Of a stretch of DNA of 64,000 nt, positions 6,001 through 52,955 are shown one piece after another; the stretch's first letter is position 1, and every line of letters starts with the position of its first letter. The translations under genes and the position numbers were made by a program. Source of the stretch: a virus (Duplodnaviria; Caudoviricetes); IMG/VR virus record IMGVR_UViG_3300029305_005724, positions 159,866 through 223,865 of that record, one strand, 5' to 3'. The notes beneath the pieces were generated by a model. That model searched no databases and was not told the origin of the DNA. It saw only the letters and a program-made list of their open reading frames with translations.

Positions 6001-9000
6001 TGTAGCAACTGGTACAAAGAATTTGTTTGTAAGTGCATGGAAGGGTGAAGATAATAATTCTACATTGCCTTCTACAGGAAATGATCTGCTCGATAAGATT
6101 CAAAATGTGGTATTTGGCATTGTCAAAGTTGTCACGTTTGTTCCTCGTACGTTAACCTATGCGGTTGGTCGTGTAGTAGATGCAGTCAAATCCGTAATTA
6201 ATGCTGCTAAGCTTATTATACCTAATATTGCAAAAGGTACTGGAGACTTATTTGTTTCGGCTTGGAAGGGTCAAGAGAATAATAGCGAGCTTCCTAGTAC
6301 AGGAAATGAGTTGCTTGACAAAATTCAAGGCGGTATCTTTGGGGTAGTTAAGGTGATGACATTCGTACCTAGAACTTTAACCTATGCTGTAGGTAGAGTT
6401 GTAGATGCTGTTAAGTCTGTTATCAATGCAGCTAAACTCATTATACCCAACGTTGCTAAGGGTACTGGGCAGCTATTTGTAGATGCTTGGAAGGGTCAAG
6501 AGAATAATAGCGAGCTTCCTAGTACAGGAAATGAGCTTCTTGATAAGATTCAGGGTGGTATCTTTGGAGTTGTTAAGGTTATGACCTTCGTTCCTAGAAC
6601 CTTGACTTATGCGGTTGGTCGTGTAGTAGATGCTGTTAAAGCGGTAATTGATGGATCTAAAAAGATTATTCCTAATATCGCTACTGGAACGGGTAACTTG
6701 TTCAAAGATGCATGGAAAGGTGAAGATAATGATCGCACTCTACCTAGCACTGGTACAGATTTGCTCGATAAAATCCAGAATGGTATCTTTGGTGTAGTTA
6801 AGGTAATCACATTTATTCCTAGAACTCTAACTTATGCAGTCGGAAGAGTTGTCGATGCTGTTAAGACAGTTATAGATGGAGCTAAGAAGATTATTCCTAA
6901 TATTCTTTCTGGAACTGGTAATTTGTTTACAAGTGCTTGGAAGGGTGAAGAATCTGATGAAAGTCTACCTACAACTGGAGTTGATCTGCTCGATAAGATT
7001 CAGAACGTAATATTTGGAGTTGTTAAGGTGGTTATGTTTGTTCCTCGTACGTTAACCTATGCTGTTGGACGTGTAGTCGATACAGTTAAGGGATTCATCG
7101 ATGGATCTAAACTAATATTCCCTAAAGTCGGATCTGCATTTGGCACTTTATTTACTAAGGCTTGGGCGGGAGAAGAGCTTCCGAGTAAAGTTGAATCTAC
7201 AGGCAATAGTACTTGTGATACAATTGCTAATGTAATATTTAATATCGGTAAAGTTCTTATGACACCTGTAACTCTTGTTATACAGGCTATTGGAAAGATT
7301 AAAGAAGGAATCACAACAGCAATCCAAAAGGTAAAAGATGGATTCACTTTCAAAGATCTTACTAGTGGAATTACAGAAGCCGCATCAAATCTTGGAGAAA
7401 AGATTAAAAGTGGTATTAGTGGTGCATGGGATAAAATATCTGGAGCATTTAGTAGTGCTTGGGATACCGTAAAAGGTTGGTTTTCTTCTAATGCATCTGA
7501 TGATGCTGCAAAAATGCGTGCCCATTATGGCTTAGGGCATAAATATCAGTCTGGACCTGAACTTGCTGGAATGCCTTATGGCGACAGTACAATAGGTAAA
7601 GCTGGATGTGGTCCTGTAGCCGCTACAAATGCTATTAATCGTCTTCGTGGCGCAGGCTCTATGTCTGTAAGAAAAGCTGCAGATTATGCTGAAGACAAAG
7701 GTATGACAATTCCTGGAGGAGGTACCGATATAGGTTACTTTAAATCCTTCTTGAATTCTCAGAATATTGATGCTACGAATACGACAAATAGAGGCGCTAT
7801 AATGGAAGCTCTTAAGAATGGACAGCAGGTAATTATGCTTGGACAGGATAAGACTAACAAACATGGTGCAACATTTGGAACTACTCCTCATTTCGTAACT
7901 GCTATTGGTCTTGATGCGAATGGTAATATTGTTGTCGAGGATCCTGATATGCCTCAGAGCTCTCTTGTTTACAAGAAAGATAAGGTATTGAATTCTATGA
8001 TGACTTCTACCATTGTTAGCGGTAAGGGCCGTGGACGCTATGGATTAGGTGATGGGGAAAACGGTGAAGAAGAAGGAAGAAAGACGAGCTTCAATGCTCT
8101 TATGTCTAGTTTCGGTTCTCTTACCAGTTCTCTTGTAAAGTCGATGTTTGGAGAAGATGCATATAATGCTATCTCTGGATCGACAAGCGAAGCAGAGTTT
8201 GAAAACCCTGAAATCGCTGCAAAACTTTGGAAGTATTTGAGATCTAAAGGTTTCTCTGAACATGGTGCTGCTGGTATTATGGGTAATATCTATAATAGCT
8301 CCAAGTTTAAGACTGCAAACCTTGAAGATTCTAAGGAAGAAGATCTTGGTACTGACGTTGGTTATACTTACATGGTCGACAGAGGTCAGAAGACTAGGGA
8401 GCAGTTTGCTACTGATGGTTCTGGCTATGGTATGACAATGTGGCATTCAGCAAATAGAAAACGTAAGCTCTATGATGCTACTGTTAAGAAGGGTGCTTCT
8501 ATCGGAGATCTTGATGCTCAGATGAAGTTCCTTGTCGATAACATGAAATCCGAAAGATCTAGTCTATATTCTGCACTTCGTGGTTCTACTGATCATGCTG
8601 CTGCTTCTGATGCATATCTTAAGCAGTATCATATGGATGATAAAACTGATGAATCGCTTGATTATGAGACTCCTAAGGGTTATGCTGCTACAATCTACGA
8701 TACTTATCATGGATCGGCTCATAATGCTGACTTTAAGAAGAATGCTGGACGTGCTAGAGATGCTCTGAATTCTTATGAGACAGAGGATGCTAGAACAAGC
8801 AGGATTATGACATCGGCTGGTAGAGCTAATGCTATGGCTAAGACTGTTGATTATGCGACATTCTTGCAGACAATTGTAACTCTTCTTATGAATATTTCTG
8901 ATAATAGTGCTCTGCTTGTTAAGATACTTGATATCTTATCTAGCAAGTTCAATATCGATATTGATCCTGAAGAGGTGAATAAAGCTGCTAATCAAGGAAA

Positions 9001-38439: not shown

Positions 38440-39903
38440 ATGGCAGATATATTTTCTGGTGATCATCTCAGAGTTAATCTGATAGATCCTGAAAGATTAG
38501 TCAAAGTAAATGATCTTAAAGAGATTACAAATCCTGTTTTCTTTGTAAGGAATTCTGTTCCTACACCAGATGGATTGCTATCTAATGAGATCTTTGGAAT
38601 TACTAAGTATGATAGAGCTAATACCTTTGCATATATTGATCTTGGTGAATACTTCTTAAATCCTTTAATTTATAAAATGTGGGTCAAGGTAGATTCTGCA
38701 ATTAAAGATTGTATTCATGGCATTAAGACCTTCAAGATCAATGATAAAGGTGAATTAGTCGAAGACCCTGATGGAGAAAATGGTATTGCATTTCTTCATA
38801 AAAATATTGATAAGATAAAATTTAAACGGACAGATTCTAGACAGCGTGATATGAGAGTTCAATTTCTTGAAAAGTATATTGGACAGCCGGAAATGTTTAT
38901 TAAGAAATTTATAGTATGTCCTGCATACTATAGAGACGTTAATACAGAAAAAGGCCATGTCTCTGTTGGAGCTATTAATGAATTATATAGAAATCTTCTT
39001 ATTTTTGTTAAAGCTCTTAAAGAATCTTCAGAATATGGATTAAACCTCAATGCAGCTACTCGTGGTCGTGTACAAGAAACGCTTGTACAAATCTATGATT
39101 GGTTTGGATCTGGTACTACTATTGGTGGTGAGAAAACCACTAATATTATTCCAGGAAAGACTGGCGTACTTCGTAGAGCTGTTATGAGTAAAACAACAGA
39201 CTATGCTTCTCGTCTTGTTCTTTCGGCTCCTGAACTGAAGGTTGAAAAACTAGATGATGTAGAAGCAGATTTGGATTATTCTGTTCTTCCTTTGGCTTCA
39301 GCATGCGTAAATTTCCTTCCCTTTATGGTTTATAATGTAAGGCGTTTCTTTGAGAATGAATTCTCTGGAGATGCTGTTATTCCATATGTCAAAGGAGGTA
39401 AAGTTACATACTTACATCCAAAGGATTACCAAGTAGAATTCTCTGATGAGAGAATTAAGAAAGAGATTGATAGATTTTGTACAGGCTTCTCAAATCGTTT
39501 TATTCCTATCGAAGTTCCTACTGTAGAAGGAATTACCGTAAGACTAAGATTTAAAGGCCATAATATGACCGCAGAAGAGTATGCAAAATCTGATGTTGGA
39601 AAATTGCCTATAATGGAAAGAGATTTAACTTGGTGCGACATATTATATCAAGCAGCAGTGGAATCTGTGAAAGATAGACATATACTAATTACCAGGTATC
39701 CTATAGATTCCTATTTCAATCAGTTCCCAACAAAGGTTAAAATTTCTTCAACAACAATTACTGAGCCAATGGTACTTGGTTCTAGGTTTTATAAAAATTA
39801 TCCAAAAATCCGTCAAGATGATATAGGAAAAGATACATCAAATAGATTTATTGATACACTTAATATAAGTAATTTGTATCTTGAAGGTATCGGCGGCGAC
39901 TAT
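38440..39903 (+). CDS. rpoC: RNA polymerase beta' N-terminal subunit (probably virion RNAP), exon 1
   Basis: DGLLSNEIFG, AYIDL, GKTGVLR..MSKTTDYASRLV, ITRYP and GGDY motifs; spliced product would be 555 aa. Confidence 0.9.
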
Positions 39904-40794
39904 AAACCTCACCATTGTAGTCGTAAAACCTCTTGAATTGCTGGAAACCTAAACATGTCTATATATTATAATATAGAATGCATGGCAATCAGCAGCTAAG
40001 GATCAAGAAAATGGAGGTGATATATAGATGCTAATACAACCCATGATATTCGAAGAATGGAAAGATATAAATTTTCTCGGAATAAAAGAAAATCAATATT
40101 TGATTAGCAATTTTGGTCGAGTATTTAGCAAAGTAATTAATCGACCACTAAAACCAGCTATAAGTAATGGATATTTTACAGTGCAATTATCATTACAAAA
40201 AGGCGGAAGAGCATCATTTTATATCCATAGATTGGTTGCAATAGCATTTATTGAAAATTCAAATCCTACATTATTAACTGAAGTTAATCATAAAAATTTA
40301 AAAAGATATGATAATTTATCTGAAAATTTGGAATGGGTTACTAAAGAAGAAAATATTTTACATGAATTAGCTAATAAAAATCATAATCAAGATCAGCTAC
40401 AAGCGTCCAAATACTGGTCTGATGGTTATTCTACTTATGGAGAAAATAATGGTATGTCGAAATTAAAAGAAGCAGAAGTTCGAATAATGTTATCAGCTAT
40501 CGAAAATGGAGCTTCTTATAAGGATGCTATTATTGCCGCAGGATTAGAGCCTACGGAAAATATGAGATATAATTTATCGCATATAGCTAGAGGCCACAGA
40601 TGGAAGCATGTAAGCAAAGAGTACAATATTCCAAAAATAATACCATTCAGTTAAAATTGATCAAAGTTCAGAGACTATCCGTAAGGAGTAGGAATACAAG
40701 CATATGGTATTTCGAAGCAGGAGGGCAGAAATGCATGATATAGTCCGACACTCATAGAAATATGAGATTGATTTTGCGAATCATAAACTTTTAG
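39904..40794 (+). mobile_element. Group I intron (IA-like) within the DYDGD motif, carrying an HNH endonuclease
   Basis: P1 CGACTAT/GTAGTCG with U-G at the splice site; P10 TCACCAT/ATGGTGA; P 39936, Q 39987, R 40667, S 40735; terminal G at 40794. Confidence 0.95.
40028..40654 (+). CDS. NUMOD4-HNH homing endonuclease (intron-encoded)
   Basis: EEWKDI..YLISNFGRV; HRLVA.AF..VNHKN..DN..NLEWVT..EN..H; GENNGMSKL. Confidence 0.95.
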   Translation: MLIQPMIFEEWKDINFLGIKENQYLISNFGRVFSKVINRPLKPAISNGYFTVQLSLQKGGRASFYIHRLVAIAFIENSNPTLLTEVNHKNLKRYDNLSENLEWVTKEENILHELANKNHNQDQLQASKYWSDGYSTYGENNGMSKLKEAEVRIMLSAIENGASYKDAIIAAGLEPTENMRYNLSHIARGHRWKHVSKEYNIPKIIPFS

Positions 40795-40998
40795 GATGGT
40801 GACCAAACAACTGTAAAAGGCGTTTTCTCTGAAGAAGCTAATGAAGAACTTGCAGAACAACTTAATAGCAAGGCTCATTTCTTTACTCTTGGAGGAAGAG
40901 GCATTAGAAAGTCTGATAAAGAAGCTATGCAAAGTTTGTACAATCTTACCCTTTGTCTTGATGCTGACAAATCTAAACTTTCCGATCCTGTATTTTAA
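40795..40998 (+). CDS. rpoC: RNA polymerase beta' N-terminal subunit, exon 2
   Basis: Reads DGDQTTVKGVFSEEANEELAEQLNSKAHFF...PVF*, completing DYDGD in frame; terminator at 41006-41033. Confidence 0.92.
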   Translation, partial: DGDQTTVKGVFSEEANEELAEQLNSKAHFFTLGGRGIRKSDKEAMQSLYNLTLCLDADKSKLSDPVF

Positions 40999-48438: not shown

Positions 48439-49224
48439 ATGGATATGACTTTCCAACAATACATAGATAATCCTATGGGAAAACATAATGCTGTATTTTC
48501 TCAAAGAGATATGTATAAGCAACTTTATACAGAAAAGTTTGATAAAGTATTTCTAAGAGAGGCTGGTAAAATAGAGTACACTTTGTATGTAGATAAAAAG
48601 AAGGATTTTTATGTAGCACACATTAAGGTACCTTCTGAGACTGTAAAGAAGTTCTACTATGATGCTGTAATTCTATTTTACACAAATGATGCGGCTAAGA
48701 GGACGTCACCCAGCCTACAGGACTACTTTGTTAAGTTCTTTTCAAATGATCCAGCATTTGTATTTACATACTTACGCGTATTTTTGAAGAATGGTTTATT
48801 TATTGAAGACTTGAAATCCAAGTCTTCCAAACTTGCTCTCAAGAAAGATCCTAAAGAGAAGAACCCATATGAAGTTCCTGGCTATAGCAAGATCCTCTAT
48901 TTTGCTTATCTTTTTATGAAAACTAAGAATTTGTTTTCTAAGGCAATGTATGAATCATATGGAGTAGAATATACTCCTGGTAAGCTAGCTTCTAAAGTTA
49001 TGCATACAGATGATAAGATTGCTCTAAGGCAAGAGCTTGGTGAAAAGGAGGCAAAAGAAAGAGCTAAAGAGAAGAGAGAAGAAGCAAAAACAAAAAATGA
49101 AGAGCATAGAAATGCGCTATCTGCTTTAAATAAAACTATCGGTTCTGCTCCTTCCGTGAGGACTTCTCCAATGGCTAAAACCGTATCACGAGCCAAAACT
49201 GTTAAAAGGGTAAACAAGAAATGA
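48439..49224 (+). CDS. Conserved-looking jumbo-phage hypothetical protein with basic tail
   Basis: RBS; lies directly upstream of the sigma-like gene. Confidence 0.75.
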   Translation: MDMTFQQYIDNPMGKHNAVFSQRDMYKQLYTEKFDKVFLREAGKIEYTLYVDKKKDFYVAHIKVPSETVKKFYYDAVILFYTNDAAKRTSPSLQDYFVKFFSNDPAFVFTYLRVFLKNGLFIEDLKSKSSKLALKKDPKEKNPYEVPGYSKILYFAYLFMKTKNLFSKAMYESYGVEYTPGKLASKVMHTDDKIALRQELGEKEAKERAKEKREEAKTKNEEHRNALSALNKTIGSAPSVRTSPMAKTVSRAKTVKRVNKK

Positions 49225-49225
49225 A

Positions 49226-49237
49226 ATATATAATATA
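49226..49237 (+). promoter_or_regulatory. Early (vRNAP-type) promoter ATATA[A/T/C]TATA, representative copy
   Basis: Similar motifs at 39961, 41045, 48307, 51544, 52290 and 53013. Confidence 0.65.
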
Positions 49238-49268
49238 GATATGAAACAATTTGGGGAGGTAACTAACT

Positions 49269-49751
49269 ATGAGTACGCAACAACATGAACTTTTGGAACC
49301 TATGGAGTTCCATGACCCCATACCGTTTGAACCTATTGATACATGGGAACCGAAGTGTCCTGAGGATGAAGTCTTTAAGACCATCCGAGGGGCAATTATG
49401 CTCGATGTATCTTCTTTTTATGGTATGGAGCCAAATGCACAACTTGATGCATTCATTATGAGTGCTAAAAGATCATACAATAACCCTGAAATGCGAGCTC
49501 ATACAGTTCAGTACCTAAACTATTTTGAGAAGTTCTATGATAAAGAACATGAACTTCCTATGATATATTGCCGTCTTAAATATCTTATTGATGTAGAGCC
49601 GGCATATAATAGAGATGCATTTCTTTATGATCTTACACGTTATATTATGAATGGATCCATTTCTCTTAAGATTGGGTTTATGAATAGAGATAACTACTCT
49701 CTTAATTTGACGTATAAGAATTTAAAGAATCCGAATCTGCAATATAGTGAT
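49269..49751 (+). CDS. Sigma-like promoter-specificity subunit of non-virion RNAP (AR9 gp226/phiKZ gp68-like), exon 1
   Basis: GGAGG RBS; early motif at 49226. F....KRSY.N and LQ..D resemble AR9 gp226 as recalled. Spliced product would be 512 aa. Confidence 0.75.
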
Positions 49752-50413
49752 TGAGAGTCAGTCACCCTGATATAGAAATATAGCAGGAGAAACTCCTTTA
49801 ATTGCTGGGAAATCCTAAAGCTCATCTGCTACCGGAGAAGGCATAAATAGTCAAGCTCCCATAGAAGAGAAATCTAGAAAAGAGTGATGAGATGATGTAT
49901 GATGAAAGTCTAACCATTATTGACAATGAATAACCAGCAGCCAAGCACCGCGTCAGCCTATAAAAAAAGAAGATGTGTTTTTGATGTGGTATTTAAGCGG
50001 ATATGGTGGAATTGGAAGACACGTAGCACTTAGGATGCTATGAGTTTATTCGTGTGGGTTCAAGTCCCACTATCCGCACCAGAAACTTTTAAAACGATTT
50101 ATTTTCCACTAGCAAACAAAAAACACGTATTACTTATTTTCGCACAACCCCATCAATCCCTAGCAAATTTTTATGGACGTTTACATAAGACCAGGCAAAG
50201 GCGCGCAAGAAGGTTCAACGACTAACGAAAACATAATATAAGTAGCCACCTAGCAACTTATATTGTAGTGAGTAGAGTAGGGCTCAAGCTGAGTTCCGAA
50301 ATGGGGAGCGCCCTAACAGGCAGTGCTGAGGGTGAAGATATAGTCTCGTCTCTAAGCAAATCTTGGAGAAGTTGATGACAACTGTACAACTTGCGATGTT
50401 GTATGAAGTTACG
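49752..50413 (+). mobile_element. Group I intron (IA-like) without an ORF, containing a tRNA gene
   Basis: P1 GTGAT/GTCAC with U-G at 49751; P 49800, Q 49932, R 50214, S 50335; P9 hairpin; terminal G at 50413 restores the frame. Confidence 0.92.
49997..50081 (+). tRNA. tRNA-Leu(UAG), nested in a group I intron
   Basis: Acceptor GCGGATA/TATCCGC; D-loop GG; anticodon arm TAGCA-CTTAGGA-TGCTA; long variable arm; GTGGG-TTCAAGT-CCCAC; A73 plus CCA. Confidence 0.96.
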
Positions 50414-51469
50414 AGGCATGGCCAGATAATGATGAAAGTATCTGCCATAATGAATTGTATGATTCCACTTATGTGTCATTTCATGTATGCCCGTAGAATT
50501 ACTAATTCTACAGAGTTTATTCTTAGCGTTTATGATATATTGATCAATCAATATAATCAGCAATATGGTATTGATATCTATAGTAAGTTATATGAAACAG
50601 CTATTTCAAATGTCTTGAGAACTGCAAAAAGAAATCAAGGTATTTGGAATATGCAAGATATTAGAGGTATTAATACTACAATTCACACTCTGCAGTCTGT
50701 GCAGAATGTATTAATCAACATTATGCCTAAGTATCGTTATGATGGAAACCTTGTGCATCTTAACTATAAAAGTATTTTGCGTAATACAGGTTTCCAGATT
50801 TTAGATATAGAGTATGAATATTCATTTGTAAGTCTTTCTTCGTCTAGAAGAGATGAGGATCTTAATTCTGAGTTTGATAAATTTGAAAGCTTTTTGCAAA
50901 AGAGCGATGAATCGTTGCTTTTATTAAATCAAACAGCAAGTGATGATGCAATGAATCAGATTCGCATGATGTATGGTCCTTTCGATGAAGAAGAAATTCA
51001 ATTCTATAAGCATCGTCTTTCTAATGGTGCTAAATGTACAGTAAACTCATTCCAGAGAGATTTAGTATTTAATTTATTTTTCAAGTACTTTGGAGATACG
51101 AATACTATTAATGCTATTAACTTGGATGATTATATTGTGCTTATTATTGCAGCAAAACGTATTTTAGAAGCTTCTGGAATGGTTCTGCTGCCTTATATTG
51201 CCAGTTCTAAAGTTACAAGATTGGCTACTCGCAAGAATGTCAATAAAAAAGAACTGACTAAACTTGAGTCCTCTCCTCTATGGGCTAAGATAAAAGACAA
51301 ATATCGTAATGATAAGATTGAAAAGCATATCCTTAGTTTGATTGCTATCATTCTTAGTTCTGAATTTGAAATTATCGACCCTGAGGATGAGTGTTTAGAT
51401 GGACAGCCTATCTCGATTATTCCAGAATTGATTTGTGAAGAAATCTTGATGTATATTAGTCTGATCTAA
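50414..51469 (+). CDS. Sigma-like nvRNAP subunit, exon 2
   Basis: RHGQIMMKVSAIMNCMIPLMCHF..SKLY..IW..PKY..LSSSRRDED..LICEEILMYISLI; no RBS for an independent start; terminator at 51476-51512. Confidence 0.75.
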   Translation, partial: RHGQIMMKVSAIMNCMIPLMCHFMYARRITNSTEFILSVYDILINQYNQQYGIDIYSKLYETAISNVLRTAKRNQGIWNMQDIRGINTTIHTLQSVQNVLINIMPKYRYDGNLVHLNYKSILRNTGFQILDIEYEYSFVSLSSSRRDEDLNSEFDKFESFLQKSDESLLLLNQTASDDAMNQIRMMYGPFDEEEIQFYKHRLSNGAKCTVNSFQRDLVFNLFFKYFGDTNTINAINLDDYIVLIIAAKRILEASGMVLLPYIASSKVTRLATRKNVNKKELTKLESSPLWAKIKDKYRNDKIEKHILSLIAIILSSEFEIIDPEDECLDGQPISIIPELICEEILMYISLI

Positions 51470-51611
51470 ATTATTAAAGAGACTAGCTTCTAATAATGAA
51501 GCTAGTCTCTTTTATTTTTTTTTGTAAAGGTGTATATTAATAGATATATAATATAATTATGAGTAGCAAAATAAACCACATTAAAGTTGCTACTAGAAAA
51601 GGAGAAATAAA

Positions 51612-52878: not shown

Positions 52879-52955
52879 GGGCCGTTAGCTTAGATGGTTA
52901 AAGCACCTGACTCATAATCAGAAGACCGTGAGATCGTGCCTCACACGGCCCACCA
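52879..52955 (+). tRNA. tRNA with CAU anticodon (Ile2-like, or Met)
   Basis: GGGCCGT/ACGGCCC acceptor; CAT at 52913-52915; A plus CCA; atypical T-loop ATCGTGC; own promoter at 52866 and terminator at 52959-52988. Confidence 0.9.

Follow-up and report, generated by a model that had tools for sequence, protein, structure and literature searches.

Introduction

Group I introns of phages are thought to persist through homing, with nuclease genes lodged in the loops of the ribozyme; in the td intron of phage T4, for example, the I-TevI gene lies in L6. Group I introns also occur inside the genes for tRNA-Leu(UAA), other tRNAs and tmRNA, and twin-ribozyme introns contain a lariat-capping ribozyme. 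tRNA-like structures act as processing signals in mitochondrial tRNA punctuation and in the mascRNA of MALAT1. Some group I introns are composite, among them the IStrons and an intron of Clostridium difficile with a c-di-GMP riboswitch, and in bacteria and phages the cargo known from group I intron loops consists of nucleases, transposases and regulatory RNA modules (PMC3984707). A tRNA inside a group I intron has its nearest precedent in the mitochondria of hexacorals and corallimorpharians, where the P8 loop of the ND5-717 intron holds up to 16 genes, one of them for a tRNA (PMC6545197).

Here we describe a jumbo phage intron in which a complete tRNA-Leu occupies the P6 loop. The DNA analysed, referred to below as the window, comprises the final 64 kb of a single-contig record of 223,865 bp; this 224 kb phage is present in bovine gut and faecal metagenomes, none of the sequencing runs listed as containing it being of RNA, and its strong Shine-Dalgarno signal suggests a possible host among the Bacillota. 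A sequence-only reading of the window had regarded a tRNA inside a group I intron as being without a known case. The coral intron narrows that claim, which stands for phages in so far as a literature search, with subscription journals mostly outside its coverage, turned up no account of a phage group I intron that has a tRNA as the cargo of a loop.

Results

A group I intron splits the gene for a sigma-like RNA polymerase subunit

The features of the locus, in window coordinates, are as follows.

49269..49751, + strand: exon 1 (161 codons) of the gene for a predicted sigma-like, AR9 gp226-type non-virion RNA polymerase subunit
49747..49765, + strand: P1, in which 49747-49752 pairs with the internal guide 49760-49765; U49751 opposite G49761 is the 5' splice site
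49752..50413, + strand: group I intron, 662 nt, terminal G at 50413, placed from RF00028 and the junction of an intron-less allele
49793..49942, + strand: 5' core part, with the P3 5' strand at 49793-49799, an extended P5 and the P6 5' strand at 49940-49942
49800, 49932, 50214 and 50335, + strand: P, Q, R and S elements of the intron core
49803-49808 with 49934-49939, + strand: P4, fully paired
49946..50211, + strand: P6 extension (the L6 cargo site), 266 nt, containing P6a, P6b and then the cargo
49949-49954 with 50200-50205, + strand: P6a, within the L6 extension
49956-49959 with 50193-50196, + strand: P6b, within the L6 extension
49975-49989 with 50106-50126, + strand: possible inner stem around the tRNA, from folding; weak here and stronger in relatives
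49990..49996, + strand: AU-rich unpaired 5' leader, from the family leader consensus, with the putative RNase P cut between 49996 and 49997
49997-50081, + strand: tRNA-Leu(UAG), 85 nt, with anticodon 50031-50033, long variable arm, discriminator A and encoded CCA at 50079-50081
50212..50413, + strand: 3' core part, with the P6 3' strand at 50212-50214, P7.1/P7.2, the P3 3' strand at 50300-50308, P8, P9 and P9.0
50218-50224 with 50341-50346, + strand: P7, fully paired
50414..51469, + strand: exon 2 of the sigma-like subunit gene, 351 codons plus stop
51476..51512, + strand: terminator-like hairpin at the transcript end, from a consensus scan only

The group I core that the sequence-only reading had drawn at 49752-50413 is recovered by the Rfam model RF00028, which aligns to 49742-50368 over all 253 model positions (38.9 bits, E 6e-8). 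The score lies under the gathering score of 50 because of the inserts in the intron; a search at the gathering threshold misses this intron, whereas one by E-value recovers it. The tRNA sits within a stretch of 261 nt, between Q and R, that the model skips. The orthologous intron in L035 scores 50.5 bits. P3, P4, P6 and P7, the P, Q, R and S elements and the G-binding pair in P7 are all present. Among the orthologues the internal guide of P1 is kept in most, a CG terminus is found in all complete introns, and the G-C pair of P9.0 is seen in 10 of 11, with its second pair in 6 of 11. The interval between P7 and P3 folds as two hairpins, an anatomy that would be IA2-like.

Excision of 49752-50413 in silico fuses the ORFs at 49269 and 50363, as had been predicted, into an open frame of 512 aa, which can be aligned over its whole length with homologues that have no interruption (38-52% identity). 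An intron-less relative (P0003/L329, exon 1 84% identical) reads QYSD|KHGQ and is continuous exactly at the 49751/50414 junction. A chimera across 49950-50200, the artefact that might have produced such an arrangement, can be dismissed: each of three independent assemblies (ENA, JGI and Logan) holds the whole intron, and a 1770 nt contig from run X12 spans 49200-50332. No endonuclease ORF of the kind that marks a homing group I intron was found in L6, where the longest ATG-started frame has 57 codons. By all the criteria computed the element would be classed as a group I intron, yet not as a homing intron. Approximately three quarters of 100 exon 1 homologues end at or just past the intron-site codon, which makes the intron a widespread one.

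The split gene encodes a homologue of AR9 gp226 and phiKZ gp68; in AR9, gp226 is the sigma-like subunit that gives the non-virion polymerase its promoter specificity (PMC9209446). Positions 32-468 of a profile built from relatives align with residues 26-445 of AR9 gp226 (7s01_A) at E 1.5e-21, and the top Foldseek matches of a model of the intron-less relative L022 (mean pLDDT 69) are 7s01_A (E 9.5e-11) and phiKZ 8que_B (E 1.1e-4). Searched alone against the PDB, exon 2 gave no match to AR9 gp226, although the profile does match. The gene is an intron hot spot in L018, L020, L050, L058, L068 and L329, where the introns number as many as five or six and exons measure 20-30 codons. In P0075-P0088 and in L064 (2501-3277) exon 1 is about 100 residues longer (258-261 aa) and ends at the same codon.

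The window contains an adjacent group I intron at 39898-40803, which interrupts the DYDGD motif of a beta'-type subunit gene (labelled 'beta subunit' by PHROG). Its 208-aa HNH ORF lies between Q (39987) and R (40667), and the tRNA does indeed occupy the same P6 loop as the nuclease gene of this neighbour.

The P6 loop contains a complete tRNA-Leu(UAG)

That the intron carries an intact tRNA-Leu(UAG) with an encoded CCA was borne out by both programs used: ARAGORN reports tRNA-Leu(tag) at 49997-50081, and Rfam RF00005 matches at 58.4 bits (cut-off 29). The cloverleaf, long variable arm, D-loop GG, an anticodon of the UAG/UAA pair, discriminator A and CCA are those of a bacterial type II tRNA-Leu. 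The stem that was said to flank the tRNA can be drawn at 49975-49989/50106-50126, but it is no more stable than those of shuffled flanks (p 0.40). Of 16 relatives tested, 8 have a similar stem that is significant at p<=0.05. The cloverleaf is absent from the minimum-energy fold of the whole L6, the stability of which is not above that of shuffles (z -0.52). Downstream of the CCA (50082-50195 and its orthologues) there is a conserved T run followed by AAACG, together with CCCTAGCA and ACATAAGA; motifs of this region are shared by introns at sites 161 and 310.

Only two intact tRNAs were found in the genome, the intron tRNA-Leu and a Met/CAT tRNA. The latter is free-standing, with a CAT anticodon, at window positions 52879-52955. 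The same pair, an intron Leu tRNA and a free CAT tRNA, is seen in G002, and G001, which is 75% complete, has no intact tRNA. The cognate codon CTA makes up only 10% of the leucine codons of the genome (CTT makes up 46%). Simple codon compensation is consequently a weak reason for the tRNA, and a benefit from it would need wide wobble or a defence context. Leucine codon use differs little between genes with late and early promoters, the share of CTA being 10.7% and 6.3%, respectively.

Introns of related phages carry tRNAs or reduced tRNAs in the same loop

Relatives were found by protein-anchored searches. At the insertion site of the window intron 14 lineages were recovered, with exon 1 70-90% identical, and a tRNA or tRNA-like element lies between Q and R in every one of them: eight have Leu-UAG, two Leu-UAA, two have wrecked anticodon arms and two carry minihelices. 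It had been envisaged that this site might elsewhere be occupied by an empty intron, an HNH intron or other tRNAs; neither an empty loop nor a nuclease ORF was seen in any of the 14. The minihelices, in L035/L050 and L066, are 48-49 nt long and consist of the acceptor stem, a short linker, the T arm and ACCA. L057 has an extra T arm where the anticodon loop would be, L060 has a short variable loop with a CUA-type loop, and the cargo of L064 ends in A-TCA instead of A-CCA.

The same cargo is present in introns at approximately codons 273, 288, 310 and 389 of the sigma-like gene. It also recurs in a second intron of the same genome, outside the window at about 137,230-137,670 (G000:C1), which interrupts the catalytic ADFD|GD motif of the beta' gene. 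The L6 of that intron holds a 135 nt tRNA-like element whose ends are perfect, although its anticodon arm is swollen and it has an additional hairpin resembling a T loop. Homologues are present in the sigma-like gene of L020 (3304) and L070 (2087). The loci fetched yielded 61 distinct introns, in which L6 is short in 20, contains an ORF in 14 and contains a non-coding insert of 149-266 nt in 27 (about 20 of them independent); as the sampling was targeted at the sigma-like gene and the insertion site, these counts are not unbiased frequencies. A strict rule demanding an acceptor stem, T arm and NCCA is passed by 24 of the 27 non-coding inserts, and the other three show these features by eye, as compared with 2 of 540 shuffled inserts and 0 of 13 nuclease-ORF loops. 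In the fourteenth ORF-bearing loop the ORF is that of a further intron, which interrupts a tRNA-Leu(UAA) in its anticodon.

That nested arrangement is found in L068 (4458-5190), where a 643 nt group I intron with a 154-aa HNH-like ORF follows U34 of a tRNA-Leu(UAA) that itself lies in L6 of another group I intron. The outer intron is in the sigma-like gene, and ARAGORN calls tRNA-Leu(taa) once the nested intron is removed in silico. Two cargo introns share one gene in L058 (Leu-UAG and Leu-UAA) and again in L060, where the first intron has the degenerate CUA-type element and the third an intact Leu-UAA. In L028 (11210-11290) and L031 (1401-1482) a tRNA-Met(CAT)-like element lies between R and the P3 3' strand, in the P7.1 region of group I introns. 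The two copies differ by two-sided changes, ARAGORN calls them only at a 70% threshold, and a pattern scan detected no third copy; they are possibly a separate origin of tRNA cargo.

Searches elsewhere returned no further example. When bacterial genomes were scanned for a T loop downstream of a Q element, 33 matches resulted, none with a tRNA in L6; nearly all are group I introns within a tRNA-like 3' domain, probably of tmRNA, in Patescibacteria, which is the reverse topology. Two Patescibacteria contigs (L218 and L242) have a copy of a tRNA 3' end, comprising the T arm, acceptor strand and CCA, in the P8 loop of a group I intron, and in L242 this copy duplicates the downstream exon. The 87 matches of a loose viral scan were mostly due to chance and contained no new case, and a DNA pattern scan of metagenome contigs gave no match. 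Among cultured phage records none matched the intron over 80% of its length, and L6 is short in the intron of Listeria phage LPJP1. An unrelated viral contig, L026, contains two twister-P5 ribozymes (6167-6225 and 6949-7007).

The acceptor and T arms are retained when the decoding arms are lost

The 14 full tRNAs that could be aligned are all leucine tRNAs (UAG or UAA), mostly 55-80% identical pairwise. In this alignment 99.1% of cells are paired and two-sided changes are seen in 19 of 23 pairs; none of 500 shuffles scored as high, and slid structures were 30-47% paired. Since tRNAs of any source covary, this establishes an ancestry as working tRNAs and not by itself selection inside the intron.

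A second allele of the tRNA of the window phage has a different, perfect 5-bp anticodon stem with the same loop and anticodon. Nine of the 18 differences between the alleles are concentrated in 28 of 1133 nt (rough P 1e-7), as if a block had been exchanged with another tRNA-Leu(UAG). The block corresponds to 50016-50043 (L335, L333 and run X12); it gives a rebuilt anticodon stem and a shorter variable arm in phages that are otherwise near-identical. Variants of the anticodon loop are also found among the cargo tRNAs.

In the exon tree and in the intron tree alike, the L050 minihelix and the L070 full tRNA are sisters (100/100). The flanks of the two are nearly identical, the D, anticodon and variable arms have been lost from L050, and the T stem shows a two-sided change. 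Apart from this pair the trees resolve little, and the count of independent reductions is thus a minimum; reduction to a minihelix took place at least twice at the site of the window intron and probably three times overall. The minihelices show that something besides decoding is selected, and selection on the half recognised by RNase P appears stronger than that on decoding because this half survives loss of the decoding arms. Decoding would be selected yet dispensable, with the RNase P-recognised half never lost in the sampled cargo.

RNase P determinants are conserved and no late promoter lies at +1

The phiKZ late-promoter motif is TATG with G at +1, and some intron endonuclease genes carry late promoters. 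In the window genome the upstream motif AAC[AT]-N6-TA is enriched, its AACA form being present in 42 upstream regions against 8.5 expected, and it is the AR9-type late promoter of this phage. It is found at +1 of none of the 27 elements, only two of which have one farther upstream, and neither a late nor an early motif is present in the L6 leader of the window intron. With no phage promoter motif in the loop, the tRNA must derive from the intron-containing transcript. A leaderless promoter for the cargo was examined and rejected.

Bacterial RNase P needs the acceptor and T stems, the T loop and RCCA, and prefers U-1 and A-2 (PMC11221534). Scored by these criteria, the top half of the tRNA is present in all 27 inserts, with U-1 in 18 and A-2 in 21. 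The leader reads ATAT at -4 to -1 in 12 of 20 elements, as compared with a background of 1.5% in the flanks; that of the window intron is off the family consensus, ending in TTAA, with A-1 and A-2. The proposal that RNase P cuts within P6 is thus well supported, as an inference, by retention of the top half and by the conserved AU leader. Group I introns tolerate a break best in L6, where the T4 and Anabaena ribozymes are conventionally split and with the highest efficiency (PMC13522490).

Discussion

A probable tRNA carrier processed by host enzymes

We consider it on balance probable that this intron is a tRNA carrier which is cut by host RNase P and 3' nucleases. A tRNA cassette would occupy the P6 loop that is otherwise used by homing-endonuclease genes and, having no promoter of its own, would be transcribed within the pre-mRNA of the sigma subunit. 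The ribozyme core is expected to fold around L6 and then to splice; host RNase P would cleave at the AU leader and host 3' nucleases would trim the product to the encoded CCA, releasing a tRNA-Leu that could then be charged. The most likely source of the released tRNA is the excised intron. If the cut came first, splicing could still proceed, since the two halves would be kept in contact by P6a, P6b and the core. Here and in most relatives the product would be a working Leu tRNA that aids phage translation, probably against tRNA-depleting defences. Phage tRNAs have been proposed as a counter to host tRNases (PMC10264068), and replacement of a tRNA cut by a defence system fits the fast-changing anticodon arm better than does codon compensation. 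The benefit of the tRNA, rather than homing, may be what retains these nuclease-less introns in the genome.

The part of the sequence-only reading that saw the intron as a tRNA delivery vehicle is supported for most lineages, by a full-length cargo that is always a leucine tRNA, by its covariation and by an anticodon that survives a swap of its stem. It is incomplete in that several lineages have lost the decoding arms while keeping the acceptor stem, T arm and ACCA, so tRNA supply is not the whole story. A broader possibility, which we hold only tentatively and regard as somewhat unlikely, is that these introns form a class in which a substrate of host RNase P is kept for its own sake. The enzyme might cut the intron, giving a natural two-piece ribozyme or steering an RNA polymerase-subunit pre-mRNA between splicing and decay, or it might release a CCA-ended minihelix with a non-decoding job. 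If this were true, the tRNA cassette would replace the homing nuclease as the reason for persistence of the intron.

In its narrower form, where the cut and not the product matters, the tRNA shape would be a cleavage signal on the intron and decoding a by-product. Cleavage might open L6 to give a two-piece ribozyme, commit the excised intron to decay and block reverse splicing, or compete with splicing and thereby determine how much sigma subunit is made. Minihelices of 48-51 nt, which arose by three or more separate reductions (L050; L066; the site-310 group L019/L072/L076), would be explained in this way, as would the swollen or doubled arms with perfect ends in L057, L020, L070b and the beta' intron of the window genome, and long flanking stems that are significant in half of the relatives tested could hold the halves together. 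We nevertheless think this unlikely, given that a complete Leu tRNA is kept in 10 of 14 lineages, that the 20 introns of the same loci with a short L6 presumably splice uncut, and that the anticodon was preserved through the allele swap, which a mere cleavage signal would not need. Nor is the cargo specific to control of the sigma subunit, being present at other sites and in the beta' gene; together with sister introns that have short loops, this leaves the earlier suggestion that late transcription is tied to tRNA maturation unsupported. We give a distinctly smaller chance to the idea that the released RNA is a decoy in trans, in which defence enzymes that attack tRNAs, such as anticodon nucleases and enzymes that modify 3' ends, or else tRNA-sensing proteins, are titrated by a CCA-ended tRNA or minihelix, and only the features bound by these are kept. 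It accounts for both full and reduced forms of the cargo and for the rapid change of the anticodon arm (loop variants and the block swap), and it has a parallel in the proposed action of phage tRNAs against host tRNases. Two papers report tRNA-based evasion of retron and PARIS defences (PMC11555353, PMC11464382), but in the published cases the cut tRNA is replaced and no decoy is involved. A sponge would moreover be poorly supplied by a regulatory gene, each mRNA of which yields a single intron RNA.

Two further accounts appear very improbable. If the tRNA were an independent gene with its own phage promoter in a merely tolerant loop, many elements with TATG and G at +1, as in the phiKZ late-promoter motif, and a one-mismatch AR9-type motif with the right spacing in L018 would find an explanation. 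The TAT before +1, however, matches the preference of RNase P too, and the late promoter of the genome itself is missing from +1 of every element and, like the early motif, from the leader of the window intron. The tolerance of L6 for nearly any insert, and the several degenerate forms seen, would similarly suit a tRNA that was captured once as a neutral passenger and is now decaying, an account to which we give just as little credence. Decay is restricted to the D, anticodon and variable arms, whereas the acceptor stem, T stem and ACCA remain paired in 27 of 27 inserts even though exon 1 is only 70-90% identical; and the cargo has been shed in no sampled intron at the site of the window intron, though short loops are common elsewhere.

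Comparison with known systems

In this jumbo-phage family a tRNA takes the place of the nuclease gene in the loop, in two genes and at no fewer than six insertion sites, which offers an alternative answer to why nuclease-less introns stay. The series from full tRNA to minihelix (the L070/L050 sister pair, and two alleles in one species) separates decoding from processing, and such a natural cargo series makes the purpose of phage tRNAs directly testable. Standard annotation misses both these tRNAs and the split genes. Opening of the intron at L6 by host RNase P would bear on the engineering of split ribozymes and circular RNAs. A conserved tRNA-in-intron arrangement is likely to surprise specialists in introns and in phage tRNAs alike.

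Compared with AR9 and phiKZ, the interrupted gene is homologous to those for gp226 and gp68 and the genome has AR9-type late promoters; it differs in being split, with up to five or six introns in relatives. The introns of phages that carry homing endonucleases (T4 td and the HNH intron at 39898-40803) have the same core, use the same cargo loop between Q and R and likewise interrupt conserved codons of an essential gene, whereas the cargo here is a non-coding tRNA or minihelix without an ORF, which cannot drive homing and is apparently handled by the tRNA-processing enzymes of the host. IStrons, the riboswitch intron and twin-ribozyme introns resemble this intron in having a second functional module embedded in, or coupled to, a splicing ribozyme; their modules are transposases, aptamers or ribozymes, with neither a tRNA nor a host RNase P substrate among them. 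The introns of tRNA-Leu(UAA) and tmRNA genes involve the same two partners in the reverse topology, the tRNA being inside the intron here, and L068 has both. Retention of a reduced tRNA shape for recognition by RNase P recalls tRNA punctuation and mascRNA, which belong to linear transcripts of eukaryotes or organelles and not to a self-splicing phage intron. The ND5-717 intron comes nearest, with a tRNA gene in a peripheral loop and splicing that must coexist with the processing of embedded genes. That intron reflects mitochondrial genome rearrangement and back-splices from a permuted transcript (PMC6545197), whereas here a lone tRNA is found in P6, at several insertion sites and as a minihelix in some lineages, as a dedicated cassette that alternates with a nuclease gene.
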